This document shows, piece after piece, positions 1,685-53,745 of a stretch of DNA of 64,000 bases. A model generated the notes under the pieces. It made no database searches, was not told the origin of the DNA, and was given only the letters and a program-made list of their open reading frames with translations. The stretch is from the IMG/VR virus record IMGVR_UViG_2822706143_000001. The stretch is one strand, 5' to 3'. The translations under genes were made by a program, and so were the position numbers. Every line of letters starts with the position of its first letter. Positions within the stretch are counted from its first letter, which is position 1. The stretch is from a virus.

Positions 1685-2443
1685 ATGTCTGCCTCCTTTT
1701 TAAATAATCAGAATATCACTTCACCTCACATTTTTATGTAAAAAGAAACTTGAACAGAACTCACGCTAAAAAATGTAATGAATCGTTCTTTATATAATGA
1801 AAAAAGTGAACTTAATTCTCATAAATAAATGTAGAGAGAAGTAACTACCAAATTAAGATATCGATGAAGACATATATATAATGATAGAATCGTTAATATT
1901 AAAAATTTATTTAAAAAATATCTTGATAAAATGGTCAAATGGAACCAAACGGTTATCAAGACCTAAATTGTAAAAAAACATAAAAAATAAAGGTTTCTAC
2001 ATATTATATATGACTAATATGTAGAAACCTTTTTAGTTCTTGTTAAACAAAAATCACCATTTTGTTGAATCAGTAAACACATTGAACTAAAAAAACAATG
2101 AGGGTTTATCTGTATTTTTTATATATTTATAAAAATTCCATACATGTTTTATTATAAACAGGCCGTTTTTTATGATAATGATGAATTACTATTCACTAAA
2201 AATATTTTCTATTAGTCAATTTAATAAATGAACCGAATGGAAGGGTCACCATAACATATAGGGGAAATGACACAGTCATCTGGTATCTTATTGATAAGAG
2301 AGAAAACTGTTTTATTTCTCGTTTTTTCATAACCTATTCGGTATATAAGGGAAATTAGTGACACACTTCTACATAGACTAATGTAGGGGTAAAAGCCGTT
2401 TCCTCATCCAAGGAATGAGTGTATTTTGTTTGGAGGTAATAAT

Positions 2444-3964
<1,521 letters not shown>

Positions 3965-4730: not shown

Positions 4731-5789
4731 CTACTTCACATACACATAGGCTTCATTTGCAGTTACATAGTATGTTGTGCCTTTACTGTTGTGTACCTTG
4801 TATTGCGGTGAACCATTAACGGATACTTTAGCATCAATTGTAAATCCAAGCCCTTCATCTACCGTTCCTGCTACATCTTTGTCAGACCAAGAAGCAGAAT
4901 CATAGAAACGAAGGTTGTCCACTTTAGAAACAACACGTTTACCTTCTACAGAACTTGAAGCAGTTGTTTGTTCCCCTTGATATTTAATGTAAGATGGGTT
5001 GTTATAAATCCATTGGTTACCACCAAGATTTAACCAATCACCTTGTTTTCCCCATACTTGATATGCTTCTCCTTTATTTAATTGACGAATAACACCATGA
5101 TTTGTTGATGGTCCACTTCGAAGGTTGACGTTAAACCCTTCAATATAAGCTACTCCTGTTGCGCCTACAACGTTTTGAGATGGCTCTTGTGGTTTTGGTT
5201 TAACCGTAACTGTTGCGCCTTCATACGCCTTTTGTACGTCCGCTCTGAATTGTGATTCTGATACACCATGACTGCGAAGATAATCAATCGGATCTTCATG
5301 GTCAGTTCCACCTAATTTGTAAGTAATATCTTTATGTGTCCATAAACCTTTGCTTGGATGAATCCCTCTATCTTTTAAAATTTTAGCTAATAGTTTTACA
5401 TAACGTTCATAAGAAGATTTAAATTTATCTGGATTGCTAGTTTCAGAAAGTTCTACGTGAACAAATCTTTTATTTGCAGATGGTCCAGCACCGTAAGCAA
5501 CATATTTTGTATCGGCAATTTGAACTGTTTCGTTCCAATCTACAGCATAATGTACAAATGCATTTCTCCATGTTCTAGCTTCATAATTTCGGATGTTAAT
5601 TGCTGGTGCTTCTGGTGTTGCAGTACTATGTGCTACAACGCCTTCATAAGCGCCCACACCGTAGCGATATGCTTGTTTCGGTAAGTCTTGGATGATTAGT
5701 ACTCTATCGGCAAATGAAGCCGTAGCAAACGAAAGTAGGAGTAATAGAGTCATAAATAAAGAGCTAAATAGTTTAATCGGTTTTTTCAT
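4731..5789 (-). CDS. Endolysin: N-acetylmuramoyl-L-alanine amidase (Amidase_2) with SH3b and C-terminal binding domains, N-terminal signal peptide
   Basis: VVAHSTAT, HYAVD, HVELSE and DHEDP amidase motifs; VNLRSGPS SH3 motif; MKKPIKLFSSLFMTLLLLLSFATASFA signal peptide; RBS before ATG 5789. Confidence 0.92.
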   Translation of the reverse strand: MKKPIKLFSSLFMTLLLLLSFATASFADRVLIIQDLPKQAYRYGVGAYEGVVAHSTATPEAPAINIRNYEARTWRNAFVHYAVDWNETVQIADTKYVAYGAGPSANKRFVHVELSETSNPDKFKSSYERYVKLLAKILKDRGIHPSKGLWTHKDITYKLGGTDHEDPIDYLRSHGVSESQFRADVQKAYEGATVTVKPKPQEPSQNVVGATGVAYIEGFNVNLRSGPSTNHGVIRQLNKGEAYQVWGKQGDWLNLGGNQWIYNNPSYIKYQGEQTTASSSVEGKRVVSKVDNLRFYDSASWSDKDVAGTVDEGLGFTIDAKVSVNGSPQYKVHNSKGTTYYVTANEAYVYVK

Positions 5790-5867
5790 TGTGTATTTTC
5801 CCCTTTTTGCCAAACAAAAAGAGCACCGTCTTTTGACAATGCTCTCCTTATGTAAGGCGTGTATTTT

Positions 5868-18446: not shown

Positions 18447-19126
18447 ATCCCATCAACTCCTACTCCTGCTTGTGACATAGATATTAATTTACATTTTGCT
18501 ATGACTAGCGTTCCTTTTCGTATTGCATCTACTTCATTCGGCGGGATAATACCCCCATAGGTACCATAATCACCCGTAATAATATGAGGGCGATATATTT
18601 CCCTCATGAAATCACGCCAATGACTGATATCATTGAATAGAGCCGTGAATTCAACTTCACAGCCTTTATTCCCCGCACTCTGGTAACGAGGATATCCGTG
18701 CATGACATTATAAGTTTTTAAGCCGTCTAGTGATTTCGGTAATTTTGTTTGTTCAATCTTTTCGATATTAGGTACATGCCCAAAAGCATAGTAATGTATG
18801 TCGCGTATATATGCTACATCAGAAGATCCATAACCGATTGTTGTAAATTCAATCGTTTGTGGACCTGCACCTACAAAGATTTCTCTCGCTTCCCAATCAT
18901 AAGGACCTCGTGCTCTGAATCTCTCAATCCCATTAACCCGAACAACAAAGTATTTATTCGGCAGCATTCCATCAGAACCAATAGGAACCTGGGACAAAAA
19001 CGAAAAGTTATATGTCCCTGGCCATGAGAAATCAATGGTATATCTTATTGTGTCTTTTAACTCTGCAGCCTTTCCTAAGAGATGGTATGAACCAGCTCTT
19101 CTATGCAATGTTTTTAATATACTCAT
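18443..19126 (-). CDS. Distal tail protein-like
   Basis: Directly follows the tape-measure gene with a 4-bp overlap. Confidence 0.6.
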   Translation of the reverse strand: MSILKTLHRRAGSYHLLGKAAELKDTIRYTIDFSWPGTYNFSFLSQVPIGSDGMLPNKYFVVRVNGIERFRARGPYDWEAREIFVGAGPQTIEFTTIGYGSSDVAYIRDIHYYAFGHVPNIEKIEQTKLPKSLDGLKTYNVMHGYPRYQSAGNKGCEVEFTALFNDISHWRDFMREIYRPHIITGDYGTYGGIIPPNEVDAIRKGTLVIAKCKLISMSQAGVGVDGM

Positions 19127-21126
19127 ACATTTCGCACCGCCATTCCCATTAGATCATCAGCAACTACGTTTTGTAGCAGCTTTCTCATTTTTACAAAGTC
19201 GTCTGCAGATTGTAGTTTTTCAACAGCGACTTTAAATGTAGCATTTTGAATTGTTACGCCATTATCCGTTTTCTTCTCAACGTGGGTTTGTCCAGCAAAT
19301 GGATGTGCAGTTTTACCAATTAAATCAGCAGAACGTGCGCCCATTTGTCCAATTTGATTAGATACATCGGTCACTAGTTTCATTGGTTTAGGTGGAACGA
19401 CAGCTTTATTTAATAGTTCAGAAGCTTTGTCTACTGCAGGAATCATTTTTTCCATCCCTACACCAAGACCTTCTGTAATATAGCCCCCGTATTCCATCAT
19501 TAACCGGGATGGGCTTCGGATACCAAAGAACTTCAATACGGCTTTAGGTATTCCCGAAACAACGCCTTTAGCTTTTTTTACAAGCCAATCTGCCATGCCG
19601 GACATACCTTCACCGATACCTGCGATAATATCTTTTCCCCAACTAATTGCATCTTTTGCTACGTTTTTTACTATAGAACCAACCTTACTAAATACATCTT
19701 TAACAGTATCTACAACCCCTGTAAATGCACCAGTGATTGCTTTTTTTATAGTTTTAAAGCTACTAACAATAAATTCTTTTATACCGCCAACAACATCGGT
19801 TATTGTGTTATATAATTTGTTGAAATTAGTAATTACAAACCCAACAAATTCACGTACTGCACTAATGATTATGAACTTTATAAAATTCCAAGCTGATTGA
19901 ATCACATTTTTAATTGTGTTCATAACGCTAGAAATTGTATCTTTAATAGATTCCCAAGAAGATTTCACAAAATCTTTTAAGAATTTTAATACTGTAGTAA
20001 AGGTTGATTTAATTGCGTCCCAGGCTTTTTTTACAATATCCTTAATCGTATTAAAAACACTGGAAATTGTATTTTTCATTTTTTCGAATTCGGTTTTTAC
20101 GTACTGCTTTATTAAAGCTAAAGCTATAGAGAAAATTCTTTTAATAATATTCCATCCAGTGTTAAATATATTTTTCCAAGTGTTAACAGCTTTTTGGACA
20201 CTATTCTTAATGAACTTCCATGTACCATCTACAATTTTTTTTAATCCATCTAAGGCAAATTTGAAAATGAATTTTATAGCATTCCAACCGAATTCAATTA
20301 TATTTTTCATTAAGCTAAAATAAAATTTAACTACTTTTACATAACCATCCCAAGCTTTAGAAAATATTTTACCTATGAATGACATTGCAGAACTGAATAA
20401 TTTTTTCGTACCTTCCCAGAATCCAGAGAAGAACTTACCTAAACCATTCCAAGCGGATTTCGCACCTTTTACGGTTGCGTCCCAAGCCTTAGAACAGGCA
20501 TCACCAACCCATTTAACAGCTTGTTTGGTATATTTAACAATGTCATCCCAGTTTTTATAAATCAGATATACTAATCCTACAATTGCTAGTATGGCAATCG
20601 TCCAAGGATTCATCAGTAAAGTCATCATGGATCTGCCCAACAGTGCTAGGGCCTTTCCTATTCCACCAAACATACCAATAAGTTTAGGGCCAACCTTTAG
20701 TATCCCTGTAAATAGCATTGGTACTTTTGTTAATACTGGTACAAGGAATCTAAACGAGCCAACAAATGCACCTACTCCACTTGTCATAAAGCCCATCATG
20801 GCAATTAACGGTCCTAATACAGCAACCATACCTAAAATTGCTACAATACCAATTTGAATGGGCTTAGGAATTGAACTAAATGCCTTTGCAGCAACTTCTA
20901 CTGCTTTAATGATTGGAGGGAGTGCCACTTCTGCAATATCTAGAATAGCTTGTCCTAACGGTTCTAATGATGCCATTGTGGTACGAGCAAGTTTCTGCCA
21001 ACGAACACCAAAAGCTTCTTGCTGCGTTTTCTGCATTTTTTTCATGCTGCCATCAACGTTTTGTAATGCACCATCGGCGTTATTTAGTCCTAATACAGCT
21101 TCTGCACCCATGTCTTCCCATTTTGT
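19123..21126 (-). CDS. Tail tape measure protein, exon 2
   Basis: Trp/Phe-periodic TMP repeats and FFGIRSPSRLM motif. Joined to exon 1 by intron splicing to give ...AVFG|TKWEDMG..., 978 aa in total. Confidence 0.9.
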   Translation of the reverse strand, partial: TKWEDMGAEAVLGLNNADGALQNVDGSMKKMQKTQQEAFGVRWQKLARTTMASLEPLGQAILDIAEVALPPIIKAVEVAAKAFSSIPKPIQIGIVAILGMVAVLGPLIAMMGFMTSGVGAFVGSFRFLVPVLTKVPMLFTGILKVGPKLIGMFGGIGKALALLGRSMMTLLMNPWTIAILAIVGLVYLIYKNWDDIVKYTKQAVKWVGDACSKAWDATVKGAKSAWNGLGKFFSGFWEGTKKLFSSAMSFIGKIFSKAWDGYVKVVKFYFSLMKNIIEFGWNAIKFIFKFALDGLKKIVDGTWKFIKNSVQKAVNTWKNIFNTGWNIIKRIFSIALALIKQYVKTEFEKMKNTISSVFNTIKDIVKKAWDAIKSTFTTVLKFLKDFVKSSWESIKDTISSVMNTIKNVIQSAWNFIKFIIISAVREFVGFVITNFNKLYNTITDVVGGIKEFIVSSFKTIKKAITGAFTGVVDTVKDVFSKVGSIVKNVAKDAISWGKDIIAGIGEGMSGMADWLVKKAKGVVSGIPKAVLKFFGIRSPSRLMMEYGGYITEGLGVGMEKMIPAVDKASELLNKAVVPPKPMKLVTDVSNQIGQMGARSADLIGKTAHPFAGQTHVEKKTDNGVTIQNATFKVAVEKLQSADDFVKMRKLLQNVVADDLMGMAVRNV

Positions 21127-21351
21127 CATGTGTTATCGTAAAGGCTTTTTATCCTCTACTTCTTGCACTTCATATTAGTGCAAGTTCGGCATATGTTTTC
21201 ACTTAAAGTGTCGCGGTCTCGTGGAAGGATTATATCTTTTCACCTTCTATGCTCTGCCCCTGACTATACTTAGTATAGCCTTCGGTTCAAGTTAGGAATC
21301 TCACCCTTCTTGCTTAATACCGCAATTTTACTTCGGCACAATGTATCATCT
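21127..21351 (-). ncRNA. Group I self-splicing intron (IA-like, no homing endonuclease)
   Basis: 5' exon ends in U and the intron ends in G. P1 UUCGGU/GCCGAA with U.G; P3 UUGCGG/CCGCGA; P4 CAAG/CUUG; P6a GCUAUAC/GUAUAGU; J6/7 GCAGA; P7 GCAUA/UAUGC; P7.1 GAAGG/CCUUC; P8 CACUU/AAGUG; P9 CUUGCAC/GUGCAAG. Removal restores the reading frame. Confidence 0.93.
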
Positions 21352-30588: not shown

Positions 30589-31866
30589 CTACATTCTTTT
30601 AACCTTTCCACCCATAACTACTTTACGTTTACTCATATCGTCCTCACATGCATAACGAGTCATATCGATACTATGATTGTCCTTATCTTGTAATCTGTTT
30701 TTCGGATTACCATCTTTATCAACTTCATAATCAATATTTTCAAATTCACCTGCAGTTTTTGGGCAACGCTCAGGATCAATTATGATTTCTACTAAATCAT
30801 CTAACCATTTTTCTCCGTATTCAACAGAACCAGGCCCTTTAATTGCACCCTTGATTTTCTTAATATCATGATCGTTTTTCATTTCATCGATTGATTTTGG
30901 TTCAGAAGAATCCGCAATTATTTCAACATCATCCCAGCCGAGTTTCTTTATCTTTTCAGCTAATGAACGATTACTGATTTTAACACCATGTATTTCACCA
31001 AATATATAAAGCTTCCTGCGTGTTTTGTCATAATGCATACGACCAAAAGACAGCGCGTCATTCCCATAACCCCAGTCAATTCCTTGACGTATAGTATCAA
31101 ATGTTTTAATTTCTTTATCTGTAATACGTCTGAATTTAAGGTTACTAAATGGAACAACACCACTGCCTGTCGGTTTCCCTTCATATTCATGTTCGTATTG
31201 CTGCGGTTTCAGCCTTTTCGTTTCTTCTGCTTCTTCTACAAACTGCTTAGAAATATGCGGGTTATCATGGTATGTACTATGATGTACAAATGTATTCTTT
31301 GGTCTGAATTGCGTTTCAAACTTCTTATTAACCCAGGATTGTTTTCTCTTCGGTGGGTTGTATGAGTAATACATTTTATATCGCAATCCATTCGGTAATT
31401 CTTTACGCAAAATAGATTTTTCTATTGTAGAAACATCTTCTTCTAATTTAAATTCGGCCAATTCTTCAAACCATGCAATAGCAACTGGATATTTTGCTAT
31501 CTTAATAGATTTGATTTTTGCAGGGTCATCAGCGCCACGGAATATCATTTTGTTTCCACGCGGCTTATAAATGATTTCCATTGGACTTTCTTTAAAACGA
31601 AATAAATGCTCTACACCTAGTATTTCTATAGCTTCTTTTATTTGCTCATAGCAAGATTCCCTTATTGTATCCTTTACTTTACGTATGCAAAGCACTGTAA
31701 TAGGAAACTGAATAAGATCCATAACAATACAAATGGATATATCAGTAGATTTACCCGAACCACGCCCGCCTTTACAAACGATTTTTAATATCGATTCACA
31801 TTTACGAGCTAACCAAACTTGATGAAATGCCGGTGGCAGTATTTCACCGATTTGCTTTTTAGACAT
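30589..31866 (-). CDS. terL: Terminase large subunit (PBSX family)
   Basis: Walker A GGRGSGKS, WFEELAEF, SYNPP, GIDWG, DNHSIDMTRY. Confidence 0.95.
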   Translation of the reverse strand: MSKKQIGEILPPAFHQVWLARKCESILKIVCKGGRGSGKSTDISICIVMDLIQFPITVLCIRKVKDTIRESCYEQIKEAIEILGVEHLFRFKESPMEIIYKPRGNKMIFRGADDPAKIKSIKIAKYPVAIAWFEELAEFKLEEDVSTIEKSILRKELPNGLRYKMYYSYNPPKRKQSWVNKKFETQFRPKNTFVHHSTYHDNPHISKQFVEEAEETKRLKPQQYEHEYEGKPTGSGVVPFSNLKFRRITDKEIKTFDTIRQGIDWGYGNDALSFGRMHYDKTRRKLYIFGEIHGVKISNRSLAEKIKKLGWDDVEIIADSSEPKSIDEMKNDHDIKKIKGAIKGPGSVEYGEKWLDDLVEIIIDPERCPKTAGEFENIDYEVDKDGNPKNRLQDKDNHSIDMTRYACEDDMSKRKVVMGGKVKRM

Positions 31867-32664
31867 TTAAATCACCACTGACATTATCTACAATGACAAC
31901 TGGATCAATATTGTTATCATCATTATTAGTATTAGATTTAATTTTGTCGATTTGAACCTGGATAAATTCAAGTTTGGCACGTCGCTCATCATCTATATTT
32001 GCTAATCTGTCAAAATCTCTAATAAGAGCAGACAAAGTAGAAAGGGCCTTAGATTGAGCATTTAAAAAACTCGCTTGCTTATCCCAAGCAAATTGAATTT
32101 CCCACTCTTCTTCAAATCCGCTTTCACTAAGTTTTTTCTTTCTTAGTTCCTTTGTCATGTCCTCTTTATTATTAACGAACATAATACGTTGAGCATGAAT
32201 GATTTGAGCGTGCTGCAACATTATACTTTCCCATAGAATCGATAAAGGATCATTGTTAATCGCTTCCTCTAGCTCTTCTTTTAAATCATATAATTCTTTT
32301 GGTAAATACTTTCTATATAAACCATGAGTAGCAGCATTACCATTACGCAATGGAGCAGAACCTCCGGGATTACCAGCAGCGTTTTTATTGCCCTTTTTAG
32401 CTCCACCGCGATTGTTTACAGCATTCTTATTACCTTTGGGTGCTCCTGGTTTCTTTTTGGAGTACTCCGTATCTTTCTTTGGAGTACTCCGTTTAATTGG
32501 TCTATCCATCCATCTTTGGATTTCCATCCACCAACCGTTTTTTCACTTACAGTTTTTTCGGATGTAGACAACAATTCGGAAATTTTACGATTCGTAATAT
32601 CACCGTTATGTTCTTTAAATATTTCATACGCTTTGTTACGGTCTGGACTTCGTTGTCTGGCCAT
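31859..32664 (-). pseudogene. terS: Terminase small subunit, split by a frameshift
   Basis: The N-terminal HTH (MARQRSPDR...WKSKDGW) and the GAPKGNKNA..GN.NA.THGLY part lie in different frames, overlapping at GGAGTACTCC repeats. Confidence 0.75.
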
Positions 32665-34620: not shown

Positions 34621-35137
34621 CTATGCTTGATCGGATTGTAGAACATGTAATGGAGGCGGAATAATCCAACCTTTTTTCTTATTCAGACGAAGTAATATAG
34701 CTCCAGCTTGTGCTTTTTTCATATGAAATTGACCAAACATCATTCCAACATCTTCTCGAAGAGATTGTCCCATAGCTTGACTACATGCTACTAAGCCAGC
34801 AGCAAGATCCATAGAAACTTTAGCTGCAATTTCTGCATCATTAATACGAGCACCAGGAGGAATCGTTTCAATAGATGCGACTGGTCTTTCTGGAGGTGCT
34901 GGTGGTAATGCAACACCATTCAATTTCAAGATATTTTTTAATTCTTCAACTTCTGATTGGATATCATTCTCTACAAGGTTTTCTAAAAATTTCTTTAAAT
35001 CCTCGTCTCCTGTATGGTTAATAAGAACCTGATATCCAGCAATTGCGCCTTGTGCCGCTGCAAGATAACTCCAAATTCCAAAGACTTCTCCGTAGTGCAT
35101 TGGTTCATTTTGTGGATTTCCACTTAAAATACCCATA
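34621..35137 (-). CDS. DUF3231 family protein (spore-associated ferritin-like fold)
   Basis: MGILSGNPQNEPMHYGEV..., REDVGMMF, KKGWIIPPP; AAGGAGG RBS. Confidence 0.85.
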
Positions 35138-35482
35138 AAAATATTCCTCCTTAAAGAAATTAGACTTTTAGCAACAATACTTACTATAGAAAAAATTTTC
35201 TCAATCATGTTCTTGATTAAAGAAAATAAGTTCTTATAACTCATAAGGAACACCTTACCCAAATATAGTAATTACCTCCCATAGAATGTACCGTTACCAA
35301 AAATTTATGCTTATAAAGAATAAATACATTTCAATTAACTTAATCCATTATTATTAAGTACTTTTAATAATAAAAATTAAAGATATTTATCATAATTTGA
35401 TTTCAATTGGTTTTATATATTTTTAACCGAATATTGTCTAAAGGAACTGGAGACATTACTAAATGCGAAAGGAGGGAAAATC

Positions 35483-36941: not shown

Positions 36942-38108
36942 TTGATAAAGAAAGTGAGGCTAACACAAATGAACACTTCCAATCAATTTAACCCTCCTAT
37001 TCTGTTTATCCCAAAAGAGAAAGAATGTTACGAAAAAAGAATATGTGTCTTGGTTTCCATCAAGATAGATCCTAAGACTTTATCTCTTTGTTCAAGTTTG
37101 AGCCATCAGTTTACTGCGACAGGCACGTATTCTGACAAATCAACTAGGGACATTACAAAACTTGTAGAGTGGTACTCTAGCAATCTTTCAAGTGCAATAG
37201 TTTCAAATGAGGAAGAAACAAAAGGTTTGACTACAGCAATTAATACTGGGGAAGCTCAAATTTTTGCAAGATTAGACGGAATCATGAGTTCGGATAGTTG
37301 TCTCACCGTTACTGAACCAGTGGTTCAAATGACAAATTTAAAGGGATCCAATGATTATACGTTGGATATAAATAAAACAGTTTCTACTACTGAGACAACC
37401 AGTATGAATTGTCCTAGTAGCACTTTCGTTTTTGGTAAGGGCGTCTTACTGCTTGAGAATGATGTTGCTTCCTATGACTTCGCCAAACAACTTTGGTCAC
37501 TCACTCAATATACTGTTGTGCAGATATCTCCATCAATTATCAAAGATCAATACACTACAGGTAAACAACTGGCAGCGGATTACTGGTGTGTTTGGATCGA
37601 AATCCAAGGGAATATTACTGATCTGGACGTCATGGAATTAATGCAACCAGGAGGAATCATTGATGAATTCACCAAGCTTGGTGGAATTTTCATTGTACAC
37701 GATACCGATACTAATCCAATAATTGTAACATCTTCTGAAGGATTTGAGTTCATTGGGGGTAAATCTGAGTCACTAACACAATTTTCGAAGCTTGTACAAA
37801 TACCTTTGTCCTTTGAGTATCTTCGAACATATTTATATAATAACTCTATCAAGAAAGAAGGTGACTCTATGGCTCTTGAAACTAACTGTCAGACTTGTAC
37901 TCCTCCTGAAGGTTCCACATCGATTCTTACTGTGGATATACCAGGTGGTCTAGCTATTAATCTATTGGGGATTCATATCGAAGCTTGTCCGATCTGCGTT
38001 ACAGTATTCATTGATGGATCTGATACACTTACATCTCAACAACAAGATATCGCAAATAATCTCATCAAAGTAGTACAGAGTTTGGTTCCAACTATTCCTG
38101 GTGCTTAA
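36942..38108 (+). CDS. Ig-like (Big_2) domain protein with Cys-rich C-terminal module
   Basis: QFTATGTYSD.STRDIT..VEWYSSN...A.VS motif; start codon uncertain; internal RBS and ATG at 37869. Confidence 0.65.
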   Translation: MIKKVRLTQMNTSNQFNPPILFIPKEKECYEKRICVLVSIKIDPKTLSLCSSLSHQFTATGTYSDKSTRDITKLVEWYSSNLSSAIVSNEEETKGLTTAINTGEAQIFARLDGIMSSDSCLTVTEPVVQMTNLKGSNDYTLDINKTVSTTETTSMNCPSSTFVFGKGVLLLENDVASYDFAKQLWSLTQYTVVQISPSIIKDQYTTGKQLAADYWCVWIEIQGNITDLDVMELMQPGGIIDEFTKLGGIFIVHDTDTNPIIVTSSEGFEFIGGKSESLTQFSKLVQIPLSFEYLRTYLYNNSIKKEGDSMALETNCQTCTPPEGSTSILTVDIPGGLAINLLGIHIEACPICVTVFIDGSDTLTSQQQDIANNLIKVVQSLVPTIPGA

Positions 38109-38214: not shown

Positions 38215-38757
38215 TTAGATTTTAAACCTAGTCATTGCTTTATCCATTTCATCTTGATTTACACCTATATAACGTAATGTGACCTTCTCTGACGAGTGAT
38301 TGAATATCTCCATGAGTAATGCTATGTTTTTCGTTTGCATGTACATATGATACCCGTACGTCTTTCTTAGCGTATGTGTTCCTATTTCATCTAATCCGAA
38401 CTCTGCTGCGGCTATACTTAATATCTTATATGCCATGCTGCGACCGATAGGACGATTCTTCCCTTGTCTACTTTGTAATAAATACTCATTATCTTCTCTT
38501 TCTTCAATGAACCATTTAAGTTCTCTTTTTAATGCTGCAGTAATTTGAATACGTTTTTGTTTTCCTGTTTTCTTTTCCCTCATAGAGATATGGCTGCCTT
38601 TGACATCACCTACTTTTAATTTCAAAATATCTGATATTCTAAGACCTGTATTAATACCCATAATGAAGAGAATGTAATTACGTAAGCTCTTTTCCTTAAA
38701 ATACTCTTTTAGCTGCTGTATTTCTTCTGGATCACGTATTGGCTGAACAAAATTCAT
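38215..38757 (-). CDS. Small tyrosine recombinase (catalytic domain only, 180 aa)
   Basis: GLRISD (R), KTGK (K), THTLRKT (HxxR), NHSS (H), LRYIG (Y). Confidence 0.92.
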   Translation of the reverse strand: MNFVQPIRDPEEIQQLKEYFKEKSLRNYILFIMGINTGLRISDILKLKVGDVKGSHISMREKKTGKQKRIQITAALKRELKWFIEEREDNEYLLQSRQGKNRPIGRSMAYKILSIAAAEFGLDEIGTHTLRKTYGYHMYMQTKNIALLMEIFNHSSEKVTLRYIGVNQDEMDKAMTRFKI

Positions 38758-39239
38758 TATTCATTACCTCCAGTCTCTTCTGTCTCGTAAACTTCTAATC
38801 CAAGTGCAAAAGCAAGCTTATAAAAAGCTTTAGACTTCCAACGTCGATAAGTACGCTCTGACATTCCGATTTCGTTATAGACCATGTAATCACATACATC
38901 CTCTTCTTCTAAATAACGTTTATAAATAATATCCCTTTGAATACTTCCAGCACGTCCGTTTCCTAATCGAGTTAGAAACTGATCAATACGTACTGACATT
39001 CTCTCAAGCCACTCTTCTCGTTTACTTTGTTGAATATTCGCTATAGCAACATCTTCTAACGGTTTTCCGACTGCATGTGTAGGACCATGCTCACGTATTT
39101 CATAAGAAGGAGTGACCTTCATTTCTTTACGCATCATCCCGAATTGTCTATGTATACGTATACTTTCCAACACGCCTTCTAATTCCTCTTGGGTTGCCGT
39201 TCTATCGATTTTTGGTAAGAAAGATAATTGTTTAGTCAT
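38757..39239 (-). CDS. ArpU-family late (packaging/lysis) transcriptional activator
   Basis: IIYKRYLEE..CDYMVYNEIGMSERTYRRWKSKAFYKLAFAL. Confidence 0.9.
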   Translation of the reverse strand: MTKQLSFLPKIDRTATQEELEGVLESIRIHRQFGMMRKEMKVTPSYEIREHGPTHAVGKPLEDVAIANIQQSKREEWLERMSVRIDQFLTRLGNGRAGSIQRDIIYKRYLEEEDVCDYMVYNEIGMSERTYRRWKSKAFYKLAFALGLEVYETEETGGNE

Positions 39240-40486: not shown

Positions 40487-41372
40487 TTCAAATAGCGTTT
40501 TGTTCAAATTAACGACCATAAAGTCGAACATATTTACCAGTATTTTTACCAATAAATTCATGATTACCTTAAATTTTTTTCGCCTTTTAATTGGACAGGC
40601 ATATGATGTTTTATGGAGGCATCCACTTATAGCAATCTACCTTTCTTGTCAAAGGGCATACTTATATGTGTGCTCTTTTTGTTTGTTATGAAGAAACGCT
40701 TTTGTTCACATTTCTGATACATTTATGAAACTTCATGTGTTATCTTTAATAAGTTCTTTAACTACAGAAAGATTTATTATGTAAAAAGTCCTAATCCCCT
40801 CTAGGGCTTTTTACATTGAAATAACGATTTTATAATTCATCAACATCTTCATGCCCGCGTAATACATCTGTAAACATTACTGAATTTCTTGCTTTTCTCA
40901 TTTCCCATGTGACACAACCTTTTATTGAGCGCTAGGATCAATCCTAGCCTTTTTTACGCAAGATAAAGATTTTATTTAAACTCGCACCTACACCAAAAAC
41001 ATACATACAATATTATGGGTATTCTTTTTCAATATTAGTTTTGGTCAGAGCGTCTTTCTCTCAAGGCGCTCTTTATTCTTTAATGACAGGCTCCATAACT
41101 CCAAGTAAGGCATACAATATTCAAAATTCACTCGTAAAAATCTGATTACGATTTTCTGAATTTTTTATATTTCATGAGACATTCACATACCTTACTAAGG
41201 GTGCATATAAAAATGCGCTCTTTTTGGTATGGAATGTGAAATAAAGGCTTGCTCTTAAAACCTTTTATATAATTATTGTGGGGCGGGTTCCTTACACCAG
41301 TGTGTCTGTTTACTCATAAGTTGTTAAAGTATAAATATAAATTGTTAGTTAATTTATAAGGGAGGTGTAAAA

Positions 41373-42671
41373 ATGAGTAAATTTAAAAAGAATTGTCACA
41401 TACCCTTTCCATGTGCCTTTCCTTTACCTCAAATCGGGTCTACTGGATTAACTGGTGCTACTGGACCTTCGGGACCTACTGGAGCTACCGGACCTTCAGG
41501 TGGACCTCGGGGACCTACCGGGCCTACTGGAATTCAAGGTAGCCTGGGACCTACTGGGCCTCAAGGTATTTCTGGACCTCAAGGGATTCCTGGGATTTCT
41601 GGATCTATTGGTCCAACTGGACCTTCTGGAATCCAAGGTATCCAAGGTATCCAAGGCATTCCTGGCATTCAAGGTCCTATTGGACCCACTGGAATAACAG
41701 GGGTCACTGGAATTCAAGGGATTCCTGGCATTCAAGGGATTCAAGGGATTCAAGGGATTCCTGGTCCGACCGGCCCTCAAGGGATTCCTGGCATTCCTGG
41801 TTCTGTAGGTCCAACTGGACCTTCTGGAGCTGTTGGACCTACCGGCCCTTCCGGGGGACCGCCAGGACCAACGGGCCCGACTGGACCTTCTGGGGGACCA
41901 CCAGGACCAACCGGAGTGACTGGCCCCACTGGACCTTCTGGGTCACCAGGACCAACCGGACTTCAAGGTATTCAAGGTATCCAAGGCATTCCTGGCCCCA
42001 CTGGACCTCAAGGAAGTCAAGGGATTCAGGGGATTCAAGGTAATCCGGGGCCTATTGGTCCTACTGGAATAACTGGGGCGACTGGAATTCAGGGTATCCA
42101 AGGTATTCAAGGTAATCCGGGACTTATTGGACCTATCGGCCCGACTGGCCCAACTGGGCTTCAAGGTATCCAAGGCATCCAAGGCATTCCTGGGCCTACT
42201 GGATTACCAGGAACCGCTGGAGCTACCGGATCTACTGGACCTACCGGACTTACAGTATCTGGGTTATCTCATTATGCTTATGTTTTCAATACAGCAGCTC
42301 AAGTTGTTGCCTTAGAAGCACCTATTCTTTTTAATTCACATGGTAGAATGACATCTGGTTTTACTCATACACTGGGAACTTCTCAATTAATGGTTCTTAA
42401 TGCAGGAGATTATAAAATTTCTTTTTCTGTATCAGGAGTTGAGCCTAATCAATTCACACTTTTTTTAAATGGTGCTCCGGTTACCAGCGCAGTTTATGGA
42501 TCAGGTGCAGGAACTCAACCAAACAACGGCCAAACAATCCTCGCTTTAGCTGCAGGTGATATTATTACCCTTAATAATCATACTTCCGCTGCTGCAGTTA
42601 CTTTGCAAACTTTAGCAGGTGGAACACAAACAAATATAAATGCTTCGATTGTAATTGAAAAGTTAAATTAA
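41373..42671 (+). CDS. BclA-like collagen protein with C1q/TNF-like C-terminal domain
   Basis: About 90 Gly-X-Y triplets (GPT, GIQ, GIP); C-terminal YAYVFN...[20 protein letters not shown]...NASIVIEKL. Confidence 0.9.
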
Positions 42672-43219
42672 TTATTTCTTGAAGCTCTGGCATTCAATAA
42701 TCTAGAGGGGATTCTTTTTTCAACAAGTAGTTAGCATTAGCGATTCATTGTCACATTACGATGAAATGGTCATATATTATTTCGAAGCAAGAAACCCTAA
42801 TCTACTTTTCAACATTTCACTTTTTCCCTAAAGAGCACCGTAAGTAAGTGCTCTTTTCTCATGGAATAAAAACTTGTCGCATTTATACCTGACAAGTATA
42901 CGTTATTGTATGGAGACTCTCCACTCATGGAAATCTACCTTTCTTGTCTCTGAGCACGCTTATATGTGTGCTCTTTTTCGCTTGTTATGAAATAAAGATT
43001 TTGTTTAGAATTTGCACATACGTTAAAAATACACATAGGATATATTGTTACCACTTTTCGATATGAGCCTTGGTCAAAGAGTGCTTTCCCGGGCGCTCTT
43101 TTTATGTTTAAATAAAGATTTTGTTTTACTTTTGCTAGCTACCCTTCCCTTGTATAAATGCACCTTTTTTTACATACCATATTAAAATCCAAATAATTCT
43201 CTTTTAGGACGGTACTAAT

Positions 43220-43312
43220 TTGAACAAGACATTAAAATACATTTTAATCTTCTTTTGTGCGATGTATTATATTGTAATTATTGGCTGTATTGTCTATCTA
43301 AACTTTGTTTAA
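43220..43312 (+). CDS. 30-aa single-TM peptide (possibly nonsense-truncated)
   Basis: TTG start with AGGACGGT RBS; MNKTLKYILIFFCAMYYIVIIGCIVYLNFV. Confidence 0.55.
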   Translation: MNKTLKYILIFFCAMYYIVIIGCIVYLNFV

Positions 43313-43555
43313 GAGCATTTTATTCCTCCAAGCAAGAAATCAATCTAAGAACGAACATAAGCATTTATAATTAGGCATAAGGAGCGCTCCACAAGGCGTT
43401 CTTTAGCTTTAAAATAAGAATTTTATAAAAAAATGCTCACTTTCAATTCCTCTATTTCCGTCATTTTGATTCTACCTTCCCCCTTATAACAAGATGAGCT
43501 CCTTTGTTAACCCTATAAAAAACAACCTAAATATGGTAAAATTTAAATAAGGTAG

Positions 43556-43867
43556 GTGAATATAATGAGTGGATTTGTAGTTTGCACACTTGTTAGTCTA
43601 ATCGTTGTAATAATGGGTTATCTGATTCATATTAAAAAACAATTATTTCTTATTGCTGGATACCAAGATGCTAATTTTATTGGTGATAAAAATAAACTAG
43701 CTAAATTACTCGGCATATTTGCTTACATAGTAGGAATTGCTACTTTTTTACTACCTTTCGGACTTGAATTTTTCGGCGGCATAAGTGGCAAAATCTATGC
43801 AAACTGTGTTGTTGCAGGCACAGTTTTTGTTTTGGTTAGAGAACAAATGATTAATAAACCTTTTTAA
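43556..43867 (+). CDS. DUF3784-like membrane protein
   Basis: KKQLFLIAGY motif, three TM helices, own terminator at 43868-43893. Confidence 0.75.
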   Translation: MNIMSGFVVCTLVSLIVVIMGYLIHIKKQLFLIAGYQDANFIGDKNKLAKLLGIFAYIVGIATFLLPFGLEFFGGISGKIYANCVVAGTVFVLVREQMINKPF

Positions 43868-43924
43868 AAAGAGTCTTAATACGGCTCTTTTTTATTGATA
43901 AAACTAATTCAAATAACTATTTTG

Positions 43925-44527
43925 TTATAAAGTAACTGCTTCTGCTGCCGGTTTGCTTTTCTCTAATTGTTCAATTGCCATTTGCAATCCTAACCAGTAA
44001 CCAATTAAACGACGTGGCAACCTTTTACCGAAATTCCAAATGTCTTCCAACGTGTCAGAATCTAAGGAGCTGCTATGATAAACGTCACTTAACCAAAAAT
44101 GGTAACCTTCCATAGATGAACTCTCATCAATTGCTGAAATAATACGATCATATACTTCCTGTCCGTCTTCTCTTGTTTCGTTTATATCGTAGTCCTTCCA
44201 ATATTCATCAAGTTCCCTTTTTGCCTTTTCTTCATCAAAATTCCAACGTTCTTCACAAAAAGCCGTTAACTTTTCAGTAAAATACCCTAAATTGAATCCT
44301 TTAATATTTTCTAATGTTGCTGGACATGTAAGGTTATACACCGCTTCGCCAATATCCCCTGAAATAAATACGTTATATCCTGCAAGAACAAATTTAGTAC
44401 GATACATATTTGTTCCAGGCTTGCCCCAATAAACAACCTGTAACCCTTCTTCACCTTGAATTTCAGCTACATGATCTACAAACCAATTCTCTCTAATATC
44501 TTTAGTTGCTTTTTCAACGTATTCCAT
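43925..44527 (-). CDS. Phage early hypothetical protein
   Basis: RBS GAGGGGG; bounded on both sides by the 15-bp motif. Confidence 0.75.
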   Translation of the reverse strand: MEYVEKATKDIRENWFVDHVAEIQGEEGLQVVYWGKPGTNMYRTKFVLAGYNVFISGDIGEAVYNLTCPATLENIKGFNLGYFTEKLTAFCEERWNFDEEKAKRELDEYWKDYDINETREDGQEVYDRIISAIDESSSMEGYHFWLSDVYHSSSLDSDTLEDIWNFGKRLPRRLIGYWLGLQMAIEQLEKSKPAAEAVTL

Positions 44528-44724
44528 TTTTCATTTCCCCCTCTTTGTATTCAAATAACGCTTTTGTAATAAATTCTCTTAATAAAATCCTCTTGTTACA
44601 ATTATCCCTTCAATTAAAATTACTTCCTATGAGCCGTGCCCCCTTAATAAAAACAAGCATCTAATAAGGTGAAGTATTTTTATATTTCGATAAGTATTAT
44701 TTAACAAATGAAAGGATGTTGTAT

Positions 44725-45057
44725 ATGTGTTGTTGTACAGACCCTCAGTTTGTCTCTATTTCTACATGCAATTCTTTCACGACAACAGGAGGTGATGTAG
44801 TTGGTGGAGCTACAGTATTTAACAATACTGGAGGTCCAGTTCTTTCCGGCTATGTCACTCTTACTAATAACCCTGCAAGTGGTGCAATTACTGCCTTTTT
44901 AGCGAACAATGGTACAAATATTATTGGCCCAATAACTCCAGGTAATAGCCAAACTGTTTTTGTGTCAAACATAGGAACATTGGTTGCTTTTTCTGGCACC
45001 GCTGGTCAACCTGTTAGTGGTAGAGTTTGTGTTGAAGCTGCACGTCAAGTAGCATAG
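44725..45057 (+). CDS. Ena-like endospore appendage subunit (DUF3992-type)
   Basis: MCCC N-terminal connector; SGYV, PGNSQTV and GRVC motifs typical of the Ena jelly-roll; AAAGGA RBS before ATG 44725. Confidence 0.65.
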   Translation: MCCCTDPQFVSISTCNSFTTTGGDVVGGATVFNNTGGPVLSGYVTLTNNPASGAITAFLANNGTNIIGPITPGNSQTVFVSNIGTLVAFSGTAGQPVSGRVCVEAARQVA

Positions 45058-45150
45058 ATTGTCAGAAAAAGATATTAATTCATTTTGGATTTAATATCTT
45101 TTTCTTAATTTATATACAACGCTTATACTATTGAAATGAGGCATTATATT

Positions 45151-45561
45151 ATGAAAAAAAATTCTTTGGATTTTAAATATCTATTTCCAATACCCTGTGC
45201 TTTTCCAATACCAACCTGTGATTCATTACCAATACCAAAAGAAAAACAAAAACTTGTATGTAATGAAATTTGTGGTAACTTTCTACTTAATGACAACCCT
45301 ACCTTTCTAGAAGTTTGGGAAAAGAGAATAGAACAACCTATTACTGCTACTGTCACAGTCTTTAACAGTTTACAAGGTTCACTAATTGAAGTTAGCGTAC
45401 AACAAAGCATGAGTAAGTCCATCCTTTTCATAGTCCCTCCTGGAAATTCAATTTCCAAAACAATTGAAGATACACAATCAGTTACTATTCGTCTCTTAGA
45501 ACCTGGCAGTGCAAGCGGAAAATTCTGTTTAGATATACATTTCGCTATAAAGTCCCTATAA
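45151..45561 (+). CDS. Ena1C-like endospore appendage protein (DUF3992-type)
   Basis: LVCNEICG, VW, TVTVFN, PGNSIS, QSVT and GKFC align with my recollection of Ena1C; GAGG RBS. Confidence 0.75.
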   Translation: MKKNSLDFKYLFPIPCAFPIPTCDSLPIPKEKQKLVCNEICGNFLLNDNPTFLEVWEKRIEQPITATVTVFNSLQGSLIEVSVQQSMSKSILFIVPPGNSISKTIEDTQSVTIRLLEPGSASGKFCLDIHFAIKSL

Positions 45562-45626
45562 ATATTGAAGGGGCTTATACATACTCTCAAAACCTCTTCC
45601 TTTTTTATAATAAAATTCAAATTTGA

Positions 45627-46262: not shown

Positions 46263-47240
46263 CTAAGCCTCTTTTTTATATTTAGATAACACTTGTTCTA
46301 AACGTTTCCGTTCAGCTTCTAATTCGATTTCACTATGCTCTACTGACTGAGAATGTGTTTCCGTATCTTGAGTATGTAACCAATCAGGAACAATTTCTTT
46401 TCGAGCATTACTACTCCCACCACGAGACTGGTATTTCTTACGGAATTGAGTTTGTGCAGCTTCAACATCAGTAATACTCTTATACCCCTTAGCATGCCAA
46501 TCTCTTAAAATACCTTGTACATAAGACATATTAGGTGCATTCTTTTCTAAAGCTATTTTCATTGCTTTAATAACAAGCTGTGCATTCAAATCTTCAATCC
46601 ACGCATTAATCCCTTGAGCCACAAATGGTTTAAGAACTCCAAAGTTTTGCTCATAAAATGCTATTGGATTTTCTTCTGCAACTTTTTTATCTCTTGAGCA
46701 GCTTGCTGCTTCTTTTTTTGTTTTTGTTTCTTCTTTTTCTTTTGTTTCTGTTTTTGTTTCTTCTTTTTCCTTGATAGGGTCTTCGAAGCCCCTTATAAGC
46801 CACTCAAAACGAGCTTGGAAGTATTCCTTAATACGAGGAATTTTAAAATCTTGCTGCTGTTCTAAATCTAAACATGTCTCATAAAAATCAATTAAAAAAT
46901 CTTCACACTTAATATTCTGGATTTCTTTTAACACACACTTTTCAATATTCATATTTGTAATAGCATTGAATTTAAGCCAATTAATCAACATAATTTCTTT
47001 CGTCTTTTTGTTGTAATGAATTTTCCCGTAATCAGCAAACCGCTCTAGCAGCTTCTCAACCGTTTCACGGTTATACCCTGTATCCATTTCTATCACTCGT
47101 AATGGAAGCTCATAGATACCACTCTGAGAAGTTTTGCTATTAGTCATTAAGTATAAGTAGAAGTATTTCTCCTCCGGTGTAAGATCTAAAACGAAAGCAT
47201 CTTGCCAATATGAAACTTGAACAGGTCTATAAACTGCCAT
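46263..47240 (-). CDS. Phage replication initiator (DnaD/DnaB_2 domain)
   Basis: LTPEEKYFYLYLMTN N-terminal wHTH; FYEQNFG...YVQGILRDW DnaD domain; probable start MAVYRPV. Confidence 0.9.
   Translation of the reverse strand: MAVYRPVQVSYWQDAFVLDLTPEEKYFYLYLMTNSKTSQSGIYELPLRVIEMDTGYNRETVEKLLERFADYGKIHYNKKTKEIMLINWLKFNAITNMNIEKCVLKEIQNIKCEDFLIDFYETCLDLEQQQDFKIPRIKEYFQARFEWLIRGFEDPIKEKEETKTETKEKEETKTKKEAASCSRDKKVAEENPIAFYEQNFGVLKPFVAQGINAWIEDLNAQLVIKAMKIALEKNAPNMSYVQGILRDWHAKGYKSITDVEAAQTQFRKKYQSRGGSSNARKEIVPDWLHTQDTETHSQSVEHSEIELEAERKRLEQVLSKYKKEA
46700..46772. repeat. Direct repeats in the initiator gene (probable origin iterons)
   Basis: tttttgtttcttctttttc repeated (KEKEETKT x2). Confidence 0.6.
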
Positions 47241-47357
47241 ATTATTCATCCTCCATTGTTTTACTTGATTTGCTTTGATATACTTAATCCAATTCAATTT
47301 TTAGAAAAACTCTCTATAAGAGTCTAAAATCTATCACTCTGCAAAGTGATAGATTTT

Positions 47358-48072: not shown

Positions 48073-48588
48073 TTAACCTTTTATATACTTCCTAGCTCGT
48101 AATGATACTTTCCAGTACTTAAAGACTTCTTTCATTGAAATACCATATTGATCACATAGGACCGCTACGAGGCTCATCATCGAACCTGTAGCATCCAGGA
48201 CTTCATGCATTACCTTTTTCAAATCCTCTTTCTCTCTTTCAGACCAAGTTTGTGAAGGCTTAAACCAACATACCGTATCGAGTTGTTTCAAAGCTTCATT
48301 TATTTCTTGATTGACCATGTACCTCATACTTGTAGGATGAAGATCTATATGCTCTCCATTAAAGAATGGGACACTTACATGACCTGTTGCTTCATTCCAC
48401 ATTTTAAAAAATAACTGCGGATCATCAATTCCTTCAGTAATACATTTTCGTAAATCTTCTGGTATCCGTCGTTGTTCAGTTTCATATTTTGCTAGTGACT
48501 CACGACTCACGGGGATTTCTAAGGAGAGTTGTTCTTGGGTGATTCCCTTTCGTTTGCGTGCCATAGCAACTTCTTTTCCTATGGACAT
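48073..48588 (-). CDS. XRE-HTH phage regulator with C-terminal extension
   Basis: RKRKGITQEQLS...SRESLAKYETEQRRIP. Confidence 0.8.
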   Translation of the reverse strand: MSIGKEVAMARKRKGITQEQLSLEIPVSRESLAKYETEQRRIPEDLRKCITEGIDDPQLFFKMWNEATGHVSVPFFNGEHIDLHPTSMRYMVNQEINEALKQLDTVCWFKPSQTWSEREKEDLKKVMHEVLDATGSMMSLVAVLCDQYGISMKEVFKYWKVSLRARKYIKG

Positions 48589-52011: not shown

Positions 52012-53154
52012 TTGAATATGAAAGGAAGTTTTCGTAAACGTGGAAATACGTGGTCTTTTACAATAGATATCGGTATAGATCCAACCACAGGAAAACGACA
52101 GCAAAAAAGTAAAAGTGGATTTAGAACAAAAAAGGAAGCCCAAAATGCTGCTGCAACGATGATTACAGAGATAGAGAAAGGAATATATTTTGATGACAAA
52201 CAATTAACTGTTTTAGATGTATGGGAAAAGTTAAAGCCTCTTCGTAAAGCTGAATTAAAAATTACATCTTATGAAAAAGACATGAGCTTAGTTAGGCTCT
52301 ATATCCTTCCCCCATTTAGTTATAAAAAAATTAAAAGTATTAAGCCCATAATGATTCAAAGCTACTATGCTGAACTTAAGGAAAAAGGACTATCAAATGG
52401 TACAATCAGCAATATCCACCGCTGCCTAAGATGCATTTTCAAACACGCTGTAGAATGGGAAATCATACATGATAATATAATGAATAAGGTTAAAAAAACA
52501 CGTGAAGAGCAAGGTGAGATGAAAACATGGTCCAGCGAAGAATGCAATCGATTCCTCCAGTATCTAAAAGAAAAAAATATTAAGTACCATATGTTCTTCT
52601 TACTTGCAATTTATACAGGTATGAGACGCGGAGAATTACTTGCACTAACATGGAAAGATCTTGACTTTGATAATAAACGTATCTTGGTTAATAAATCACT
52701 TGTAAAAACAGAAAAAGGACTATTTAAAGCTGCTACAAAAACTAAATCTTCAAATAGAAGCATTAGTATCTCTTCTTTTGTTATAGGAAAGTTACAATCC
52801 TACTACTCTTATAAAAAGAAAGAATTTTTCCGCTGGGGTATACACTTGAATGAAGAAGCCTTTATTTTCACCGGCAATACGATACATTCGCCCTTACATA
52901 TAGATGCTCCTCATCGGTTTTTGAATGATCACTATAAAAAAGCTGGTGTTTCTCGGATTCGTATACACGACTTACGACATACTCACGCTACACTAATGCT
53001 TCAGGCTGGGGAACACCCTAAAATCGTACAAGATCGCTTAGGACATTCATCTATTCAAATGACTTTAGACAAGTATAGTCACATCACACAGAACATGCAG
53101 CAACAAGCAGCAGAAAACTTCGAGAGCATAATAAAATCTAATGAAAACACCTGA
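52012..53154 (+). CDS. Prophage tyrosine integrase
   Basis: Arm-binding N-terminus (SGFRTKKEAQ), TGMRRGELLAL, HDLRHTHAT, RLGHSSIQMTLDKYSH. Confidence 0.95.
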   Translation: MNMKGSFRKRGNTWSFTIDIGIDPTTGKRQQKSKSGFRTKKEAQNAAATMITEIEKGIYFDDKQLTVLDVWEKLKPLRKAELKITSYEKDMSLVRLYILPPFSYKKIKSIKPIMIQSYYAELKEKGLSNGTISNIHRCLRCIFKHAVEWEIIHDNIMNKVKKTREEQGEMKTWSSEECNRFLQYLKEKNIKYHMFFLLAIYTGMRRGELLALTWKDLDFDNKRILVNKSLVKTEKGLFKAATKTKSSNRSISISSFVIGKLQSYYSYKKKEFFRWGIHLNEEAFIFTGNTIHSPLHIDAPHRFLNDHYKKAGVSRIRIHDLRHTHATLMLQAGEHPKIVQDRLGHSSIQMTLDKYSHITQNMQQQAAENFESIIKSNENT

Positions 53155-53469: not shown

Positions 53470-53745
53470 TTAGGATCTTCTCTTTCTAGGACCTACAATT
53501 AATTTAATTGCTGTTCTTTCTTGATTATTGATAGAAATCTCTTGAAATGCTGGAACAAAAGCCAAATCAACACCACTTGGAGCAACAAATCCTCTTGCAA
53601 TCGCAATTGCTTTAATTGCTTGATTTAAAGAACCTGCCCCAATTACTTGGATTTCCACATTGCCATTTGCTCTTAGTACACCGGCTATTGCACCTGCAAC
53701 TGAATTTGGACTTGATTTTGAAGATACCTTTAATATATTTTCCAT
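53470..53745 (-). CDS. spoVS: Stage V sporulation protein S
   Basis: ILKVSSKSSPNSVAGAIAG..AIGAG.LNQAIKAIAIARGFVAPSG. Confidence 0.95.
   Translation of the reverse strand: MENILKVSSKSSPNSVAGAIAGVLRANGNVEIQVIGAGSLNQAIKAIAIARGFVAPSGVDLAFVPAFQEISINNQERTAIKLIVGPRKRRS

Follow-up and report, generated by a model that had tools for sequence, protein, structure and literature searches.

An ena gene pair and a separate collagen-like gene that share a short peptide in a prophage of the Bacillus cereus group

Introduction

The S-type endospore appendage (S-ENA) of Bacillus paranthracis NVH 0075-95 is encoded by ena1A-ena1B and ena1C (7A02, 9T3P; bioRxiv 10.1101/2020.08.21.260141, PMC12921279). Ena1C forms a nonameric ring that anchors the S-ENA fibre: lumen Cys142 captures the connector of the fibre subunit, Cys148 and Cys154 cross-link the ring, and a linker of ∼33 aa is located below the ring, facing the coat, where a receptor for it has been proposed (PMC12921279). 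The L-type appendage (L-ENA) is encoded by the ena3 cluster (exsL, l-bclA, ena3A; 8PDZ), and ENA clusters of this type have been reported on Tn3-type transposons and plasmids (PMC11362473). F-ENA carries the collagen-stalked protein F-BclA (9H38; PMC12357932), and the tip proteins of both L-ENA and F-ENA dock by mimicking the connector of the fibre subunit (PMC11362473, PMC12357932). Here, we compare with these systems a locus in a 64,000-nucleotide stretch of DNA, IMG/VR virus record IMGVR_UViG_2822706143_000001 (the whole stretch is further referred to as the window). It contains a prophage of the B. cereus group with a collagen-like gene (41373–42671) and a pair of ena genes (44725–45057 and 45151–45561), all on the plus strand. 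Other loci and genomes are denoted by L and G numbers, respectively.

A first-pass annotation of the window had read these three open reading frames (ORFs) as a prophage-borne kit for a new spore appendage, with the collagen-like protein as its ruffle tip. The three ORFs are present as annotated, and most components of that reading stand: the genes are carried by a prophage, two of them are DUF3992/Ena genes, the second being Ena1C-like, and the collagen-like protein has a BclA_C head, lacks the exosporium leader and shares a motif with the Ena1C-like protein. What is not supported is the three-part kit with the collagen-like protein at the tip. Instead, we consider it moderately probable that the prophage carries a subunit-plus-anchor ena operon for an S-ENA-like spore fibre and, separately, a collagen cargo gene, and that the shared peptide is a docking tag for a host acceptor.

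Two Ena proteins

In a hidden Markov model search against Pfam Enas (PF13157, cut-off 22 bits), the products of 44725–45057 (110 aa) and 45151–45561 (136 aa) scored 29.1 and 66.4 bits, respectively. The DUF3992 fold is predicted for both, and their best matches in the PDB are all Ena proteins, with every other structure far behind. Both ORFs are also open from further upstream (44716 and 45136); the starts at 44725 and 45151 are favoured because of the ribosome-binding sites (AAAGGA 8 nt upstream of the ATG at 44725 and GAGG 9 nt upstream of the ATG at 45151, MKKNSL...) and because gene calls of 110 and 136 aa in other genomes agree with them.

The 110-aa protein is a DUF3992/Ena jelly-roll with the cysteine pattern of an S-ENA subunit. 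Its AlphaFold2 model (predicted local distance difference test, pLDDT, 87) has eight strands arranged as a jelly-roll, and all five solved Ena proteins head its list of PDB matches, with template modelling (TM) scores of 0.64–0.75. The cysteine layout is kept across the aligned relatives: CC, ten residues, Cys15 in the first strand, and Cys101 near the C-terminus. The spacing CC–10 residues–C equals that in canonical EnaA (genome G001). On the other hand, the connector is shortened to a minimal MCCC, and the protein is ∼20% identical to EnaA. Structurally, the model is nearest to Ena3A of L-ENA (8pdz, TM 0.75), while the cysteine pattern is of the S-type and not that of Ena3A.

The 136-aa protein most closely resembles Ena1C, as had been suggested from its motifs. 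It consists of a 35-aa Pro/Cys N-terminal linker, with six prolines and two cysteines among residues 1–36, and a jelly-roll core. The Ena1C ring 9t3p is its best solved sequence relative (E 1.4e-4). The five best PDB matches of the AlphaFold2 model (pLDDT 84, with the linker at low confidence) are all Ena proteins, and 9t3p has the highest target-normalised TM score (TMt 0.80) and the lowest root-mean-square deviation (2.3) among them. The S-ENA set similarly has a longer DUF3992 protein, the third one there, with a Pro/Cys-rich N-terminal linker. The 136-aa protein is 32% identical to canonical EnaC and, unlike Ena1C, lacks a poly-proline run. Its cysteines are at positions 16, 23, 37, 41, and 126. 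Cys126, in GKFC, aligns with GRYC of the 9t3p chain and GKYC of canonical EnaC; allowing for a numbering offset, we take it to be the probable equivalent of the lumen Cys142 of Ena1C. Further, we refer to the 136-aa protein as the anchor.

Organization of the ena pair

The anchor gene follows the subunit gene in the same direction, whereas in S-ENA ena1C is divergent. A 15-bp hairpin between the two genes (45064–45105, plus strand), an attenuator or a terminator, is kept in all seven prophage loci aligned and has a minimum free energy of −17.7 kcal/mol (z-score −5.2; none of 200 shuffled sequences did as well). A promoter-like block, CCGTG(A/C)CC, 17 nt and CATCTAATA, is found upstream of the subunit gene (44634–44666, plus strand). 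The block aligns among the B. cereus-group prophages and also with chromosomal loci in B. mycoides, Peribacillus, and Priestia, where the flanking sequences are not alignable. The sigma-K consensus is AC-17-CATAnnnTA, and the block may be a sigma-K-like promoter. From this arrangement, we tentatively read an operon in which a promoter precedes the gene of the major subunit and an attenuating hairpin separates the latter from the gene of the minor anchor.

Distribution of the ena pair

The family is small, with 8 anchor clusters and 12 subunit clusters in 5.8 billion proteins. Where the cluster entries have a source name, it is mostly "S-Ena type endospore appendage" or "DUF3992 domain-containing protein"; names for these proteins are already present in the databases. 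Among 71 species-representative genomes of the genus, four have a relative of the anchor (E < 1e-10), and one of these four is a canonical cluster. The nearest genome, G001, has only the canonical enaA/B/C cluster. A tblastn search with both Ena proteins found nothing among 50,697 phage records; their carriers are confined to IMG/VR proviruses and bacterial genomes.

At least three prophage backbones carry the pair as a unit, and they differ in their replication and integration modules: B. toyonensis prophages have DnaB/DnaD and a serine recombinase, the B. mycoides type has PolA/primase-MCM, and the window has the DnaD-like type and a tyrosine integrase. At these loci, the pair is oriented antisense to the phage genes next to it, and the hotspot that it occupies is the same in the window as in B. 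toyonensis. IMG/VR proviruses contain the pair as well. More distant relatives are chromosomal and comprise a subunit gene and an Ena1C-like gene, in tandem in Priestia and divergent in Peribacillus and B. mycoides. In the B. mycoides locus L020, the subunit gene faces the Ena1C-like gene, which is followed by a collagen-stalk gene with a propeller-like repeat head.

The Peribacillus and Priestia loci have, in addition to a plain subunit gene and an Ena1C-like gene, a third gene with a subunit domain fused to a repeat domain. In these fused genes (L018:8286–9518 and L022:3728–4966), an Ena subunit domain with an MCCP connector is joined to ∼300 aa of YVTN-like repeats. By its repeats, the fused domain looks like a beta-propeller, and the fusion is a candidate head-bearing fibre subunit.

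The collagen-like gene

The gene at 41373–42671 encodes a 432-aa protein with a collagen stalk (Pfam Collagen, 1.3e-38) and a C1q-like BclA_C head (7.6e-11; 42.4 bits, cut-off 38). The best solved relative of the head is that of F-BclA (9h38, E 3e-17), which is likewise collagen-stalked. L-ENA is similar in being a rare, mobile ENA set with a leaderless collagen protein carrying a C1q-like head on the same element. The differences from L-ENA are the carrier, a prophage rather than a Tn3-type transposon or plasmid, the lack of an ExsL (CotZ and Ena-core) gene among the ORFs scanned at 33–50 kb, and the gene order, as the collagen and subunit genes do not form an operon, whereas l-bclA-ena3A is bicistronic. 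No DUF4183 gene of the F-ENA type was found among the window ORFs scanned.

The first Gly-X-Y repeat is directly preceded by a 22-aa N-terminal module (41373–41438, plus strand). The collagens with the exosporium leader, such as BclA, also begin with a short peptide that is rich in Pro and immediately adjoins the collagen repeats, and they have a BclA_C head as well. This leader, TIGR03720, docks to ExsF. It had been noted to be missing from the prophage protein, and our search agrees: TIGR03720 did not match the collagen N-terminus at E up to 10, while a host collagen-like gene just outside the prophage (2426–3964, plus strand), which served as a positive control, has the canonical leader (42.5 bits). 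As the model fails on the collagen N-terminus and matches the host gene in the same window, the prophage peptide, with its two cysteines and PFPCAFP core, is distinct from the ExsF-binding leader. The C-terminal domain of the host protein has no Pfam match.

The collagen family has a sister class reading MSKFKK[HN]CCHIPFPLPQIG, which differs by a 4-aa indel and keeps two cysteines; MSEFKK variants were also found in a pattern scan. A gene of this CC class (MSKFKK[HN]CCHIP) is present at the same site in the sequenced phage PHBA67-J. Adjoining it is a gene for a 154-aa protein with a Cys-rich C-terminal tail (L001:9802–10266, plus strand), which has no Pfam match and weakly resembles the Ena1C-like family at the profile level (hhalign probability 62%, E 7e-5). 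We also considered whether the PCAFP class co-occurs with the ena pair and the CC class does not, and rejected this: the PCAFP class is found with the pair in three loci and without it in many, and the CC class without it in three.

Could the three proteins be parts of the virion, the collagen-like protein being a tail fibre and the jelly-roll proteins capsid decoration or cement? The collagen-like protein does match phrog_30509, "collagen like minor tail" (E 1.9e-133), and jelly-roll folds also occur in viral capsids, which are among the lower fold matches of both models. However, none of the three genes is part of a structural module, and all are on the other strand, flanked by the replication genes and the late regulator; the Ena proteins have no PHROG match in addition to the lack of tblastn matches among the phage records; the same pair occurs at chromosomal, non-phage loci; and the nearest relative of the head domain is the tip of a spore appendage. 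Hence, we regard a virion role as very improbable.

The collagen gene assorts independently of the ena pair, since each is found without the other and one of them may be replaced. The pair is present without the collagen gene in three B. toyonensis prophages (L015–L017). Conversely, a collagen gene with the motif is present without the pair in L028, L029, and 13 loci in the genus genomes; in several prophages and genomes with the same collagen N-terminus there is no pair within 9 kb, and one of these genomes has no relative of the anchor at all. The nearest provirus, G002 (55% shared words), matches the window at 95–97% on both sides of 43425–45600 and has no match to this segment, which in the window holds the ena pair together with a DUF3784 gene and a phrog_5051 gene. 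G002 keeps the collagen gene at 97% identity, and the slot of the ena pair is filled by a second collagen gene (L048:601–2016, plus strand) for a 471-aa protein that starts with MDCFKKGKFIPFPCALPIPESG and has a different head.

In the window, 2 kb of DNA with two genes and terminator-like hairpins separate the collagen gene from the pair. Direct repeats of 59–92 nt (families D4/D7; left copy 40622–40713, right copy 42920–43012, both on the plus strand) bracket the collagen gene in a cassette-like fashion, with 85% and 76% identity between the copies. Each copy holds a terminator-like hairpin, and such plus-strand hairpins cluster in the non-coding DNA around the gene (40651–41222, 42952–43101), with 10 in 5.7 kb against 4.3 ± 2.2 expected.

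The shared N-terminal peptide

The N-termini of the collagen-like protein and the anchor share a motif beyond chance. Compared with LFPIPCAFPIP of the anchor, the collagen N-terminus has 7 identities in the best ungapped 10-mer, a value reached by 13 of 20,000 composition-preserving shuffles; this bears out the common motif of the first-pass annotation. In the anchor linker, the shared peptide FPIPCAFPIP is encoded at 45187–45216 (plus strand). IPCAFPIP is invariant in the full-length anchor homologues shown (71–98% identity), and the IMG/VR copies have PCAFPVP. The best 10-mer identity of the collagen N-terminus to the subunit is 3/10. Judging by these alignments, the collagen N-terminus copies the linker of the anchor and not the MCCC connector of the subunit. 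In this it differs from F-BclA, the N-terminus of which mimics the hook of the DUF4183 subunit. Variants C-x-AFP and CFAP are found in 14 of 44 Ena1C-type linkers, the canonical ones included, and so the motif is an old feature of the anchors.

To see how far the peptide is spread, we scanned the 71 genus genomes for N-termini of the form PFPC[AST]FP[LI]P. True matches are present in 14 genomes, on at least seven protein architectures other than the anchor. Five of these are collagen-stalked, with differing residues before the motif and at least four different heads, and two have no collagen stalk. Six motif loci are without a BclA_C-type collagen; in all five that were checked for flanking genes, the gene lies among housekeeping genes. 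No ena gene was found within ∼5 kb at 13 loci around the motif matches. Matches to PFPCSLPIP in ∼42 genomes were discarded, as they come from a 19-codon frame of conserved sequence that is not an ORF. We also observed a family of 233-aa collagen proteins (L037, L040, L043) starting with MSEFKKKFHIPC[ED]CF.PP.PPP and having a third kind of head, which ends in VFQPTGGPCTSCSQNF; there is no ena gene within 6 kb of these genes.

These data bear on the possibility that the collagen-like protein is the ruffle tip of the phage fibre, its PCAFP peptide docking on the Ena ring or fibre in the manner of L-BclA on L-ENA. Indeed, L-BclA and F-BclA are tips without an exosporium leader (PMC11362473, PMC12357932), and the Peribacillus and Priestia head–subunit fusions suggest that this Ena type carries heads. 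Moreover, the collagen gene and the pair occur together in the window, L013 and L014, and in L020 a collagen protein with a related N-terminus is encoded directly downstream of the Ena1C-like gene; therefore, this collagen family may be functionally linked to this type of Ena. Still, a tip of the described kind would be expected to resemble the connector of the subunit, and the collagen N-terminus resembles the linker of the anchor. The collagen gene is without the pair in most of its loci, the pair occurs without the collagen gene, the nearest provirus has another collagen gene in its place, the two units are separated in the window by genes and terminator-like hairpins, and the motif heads at least seven other architectures. 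A ruffle tip of the phage fibre is a possible account that is no longer the simplest one, and we consider it unlikely. The L020 collagen protein itself (L020:1099–2490, minus strand) has the N-terminus MSEFKKKFHIPCECFLPPVPPPQIG, and an insertion sequence (rve) gene is nearby.

We return to the reading of the peptide as a tag. Since it is also found at the N-termini of at least seven further proteins, several of which are encoded in ordinary chromosomal surroundings, its acceptor is most likely host-generic, present on any spore of the B. cereus group, rather than the fibre of the phage. PFPCAFP[LI]P is most likely a modular docking tag of the Ena1C-linker type. We further propose, as a conjecture that we hold to be less than even, that PFPCAFP[LI]P after an upstream cysteine is a second, hitherto undescribed docking leader of the B. 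cereus-group spore surface, common to Ena1C-type rings and to collagen-stalked and stalk-less proteins with interchangeable heads, and that phages use it to graft fibres and fibrils onto the spores of lysogens. If so, the acceptor would be the receptor of the Ena1C linker, or else would point to the S-ENA ruffle proteins.

The latter option corresponds to a different arrangement, in which the PFPCAFP collagens would be tip fibrillae of the host S-ENA or L-ENA ("S-BclA"), and the phage anchor ring would dock in the same way, grafting the phage fibre onto host ENA rather than onto the coat. S-ENA ruffles are expected to be leaderless collagen-like proteins with N-terminal cysteines (PMC11362473); a CC signature has been stressed (PMC12357932), and the sister class MSKFKK[HN]CCHIP has one. 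Proteins with the motif occur in genomes with canonical ena genes only, and L-BclA has been reported at the ends of both S- and L-ENA, so that tips can be promiscuous. However, the Ena1C linker sits below the ring, towards the coat (PMC12921279), the fit of the PCAFP peptide in an Ena acceptor site has no structural or sequence support, and two of the proteins bearing the motif have no collagen stalk. Overall, this arrangement seems to us more doubtful still than a ruffle tip on the phage fibre.

The prophage and its other cargo

The prophage is ∼49 kb long, at ∼4.4–53.2 kb of the window, and looks complete; it is of the temperate siphophage type of the B. cereus group and adjoins spoVS, which is located just beyond its end (53470–53745). 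A multicopper oxidase gene and the above host collagen gene flank it on the opposite side. No direct repeats of ≥12 nt that could serve as att sites were found between 3.9–4.8 kb and 53.1–54.6 kb. The minus strand carries the endolysin (4731–5813), the tail genes with the tape measure (19123–21129), the head protease and portal genes, and the large and small terminase genes (30589–32527). These are followed by genes for a small tyrosine recombinase (38215–38757) and an ArpU-like activator, the late regulator (38757–39239), and, beyond the ena pair, by a DnaD-like replication gene (46263–47297), a repressor-type regulator (48073–48588), and the integrase (52012–53154). With the endolysin, tape measure, portal, terminase, ArpU-like activator, DnaD-like protein, and integrase identified around the collagen and ena genes, their prophage setting, also proposed in the first-pass annotation, is confirmed.

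The hotspot that holds the collagen gene and the ena pair is bounded by the replication module and the ArpU-like late regulator, and both units are antisense to the phage genes. Further cargo includes genes for a DUF3231 protein (34621–35262, minus strand) and a 388-aa protein (36942–38108, plus strand) that combines a Big_2 domain with a Cys-rich C-terminal part without a family match. In related prophages, genes of the GerPA family (PF10676) adjoin the collagen gene (L014:3482–5250, L030:8524–8739, L031:8524–8739); these are more spore-related cargo at the same hotspot. Within the replaceable segment 43425–45600, a 22-nt pattern, CAAATAACNNTTTTGTWATAAA, has two matches (43910–43931 and 44552–44573; chance expectation 0.14), which flank the minus-strand phrog_5051 gene. 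The right copy is where the homology upstream of the ena pair begins in other prophages.

Discussion

While the protein family is known, three features of the locus are new. First, the ena pair is carried by prophages; we found no paper linking ENA genes to prophages in the literature searched. Second, the cluster is divergent in its architecture, having a single subunit gene and, in the same direction, an anchor gene whose product is without the ring disulfide. Third, the linker motif is recognised as a portable N-terminal tag.

The families, folds, cysteine patterns, synteny, independent assortment, and motif spread are shown by the analysis; from them, we infer the timing of expression, the assembly of the ring and the fibre, and the identity of the acceptor as follows. 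The sporulating mother cell of the lysogen would express the ena operon. The 136-aa protein would assemble into a ring, which its Pro/Cys linker would attach to a spore layer and which would capture the MCCC connector of the subunit via Cys126. The subunits would then polymerise by beta-sheet augmentation, with disulfides locking CC to Cys15 and Cys101. The outcome would be an extra S-ENA-like appendage on the lysogen spores. The collagen gene would be independent cargo, encoding a leaderless collagen fibril with a C1q-like head. The shared peptide could have as its acceptor the same coat receptor that has been proposed to bind the Ena1C linker (PMC12921279), or else the open ends of ENA fibres of the host. 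If the fibre ends are the acceptor, the leaderless collagen proteins would be candidates for the "S-BclA" ruffle proteins sought in PMC11362473 and PMC12357932.

Several observations weigh against this model. The subunit gene is single in the window and in all prophage loci, without the paralogous A/B pair of S-ENA. The anchor has no cysteine after Cys126, so that the Cys148/Cys154 ring-disulfide pair of Ena1C is absent; canonical EnaC of G001 ends in four more cysteines. The promoter-like block is a weak match to the sigma-K consensus, the A of its −35 element being C in the window, and comparison with the upstream regions of canonical enaA and host bclA-like genes revealed no clear sigma-K pattern. 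The loci in which the collagen gene accompanies the pair or, as in L020, directly follows the Ena1C-like gene, cited above in favour of a ruffle tip, belong here as well.

The locus bears on two questions of the field, namely, the binding partner of the Ena1C linker and the collagen proteins that form the S-ENA ruffles. As the linker motif heads many leaderless collagen-like proteins, it provides a concrete bait peptide for the acceptor. In food-borne and pathogenic bacilli, how spores aggregate and adhere is shaped by ENA fibres. Since a divergent ena operon travels on prophages, lysogeny could alter the architecture of the spore surface.

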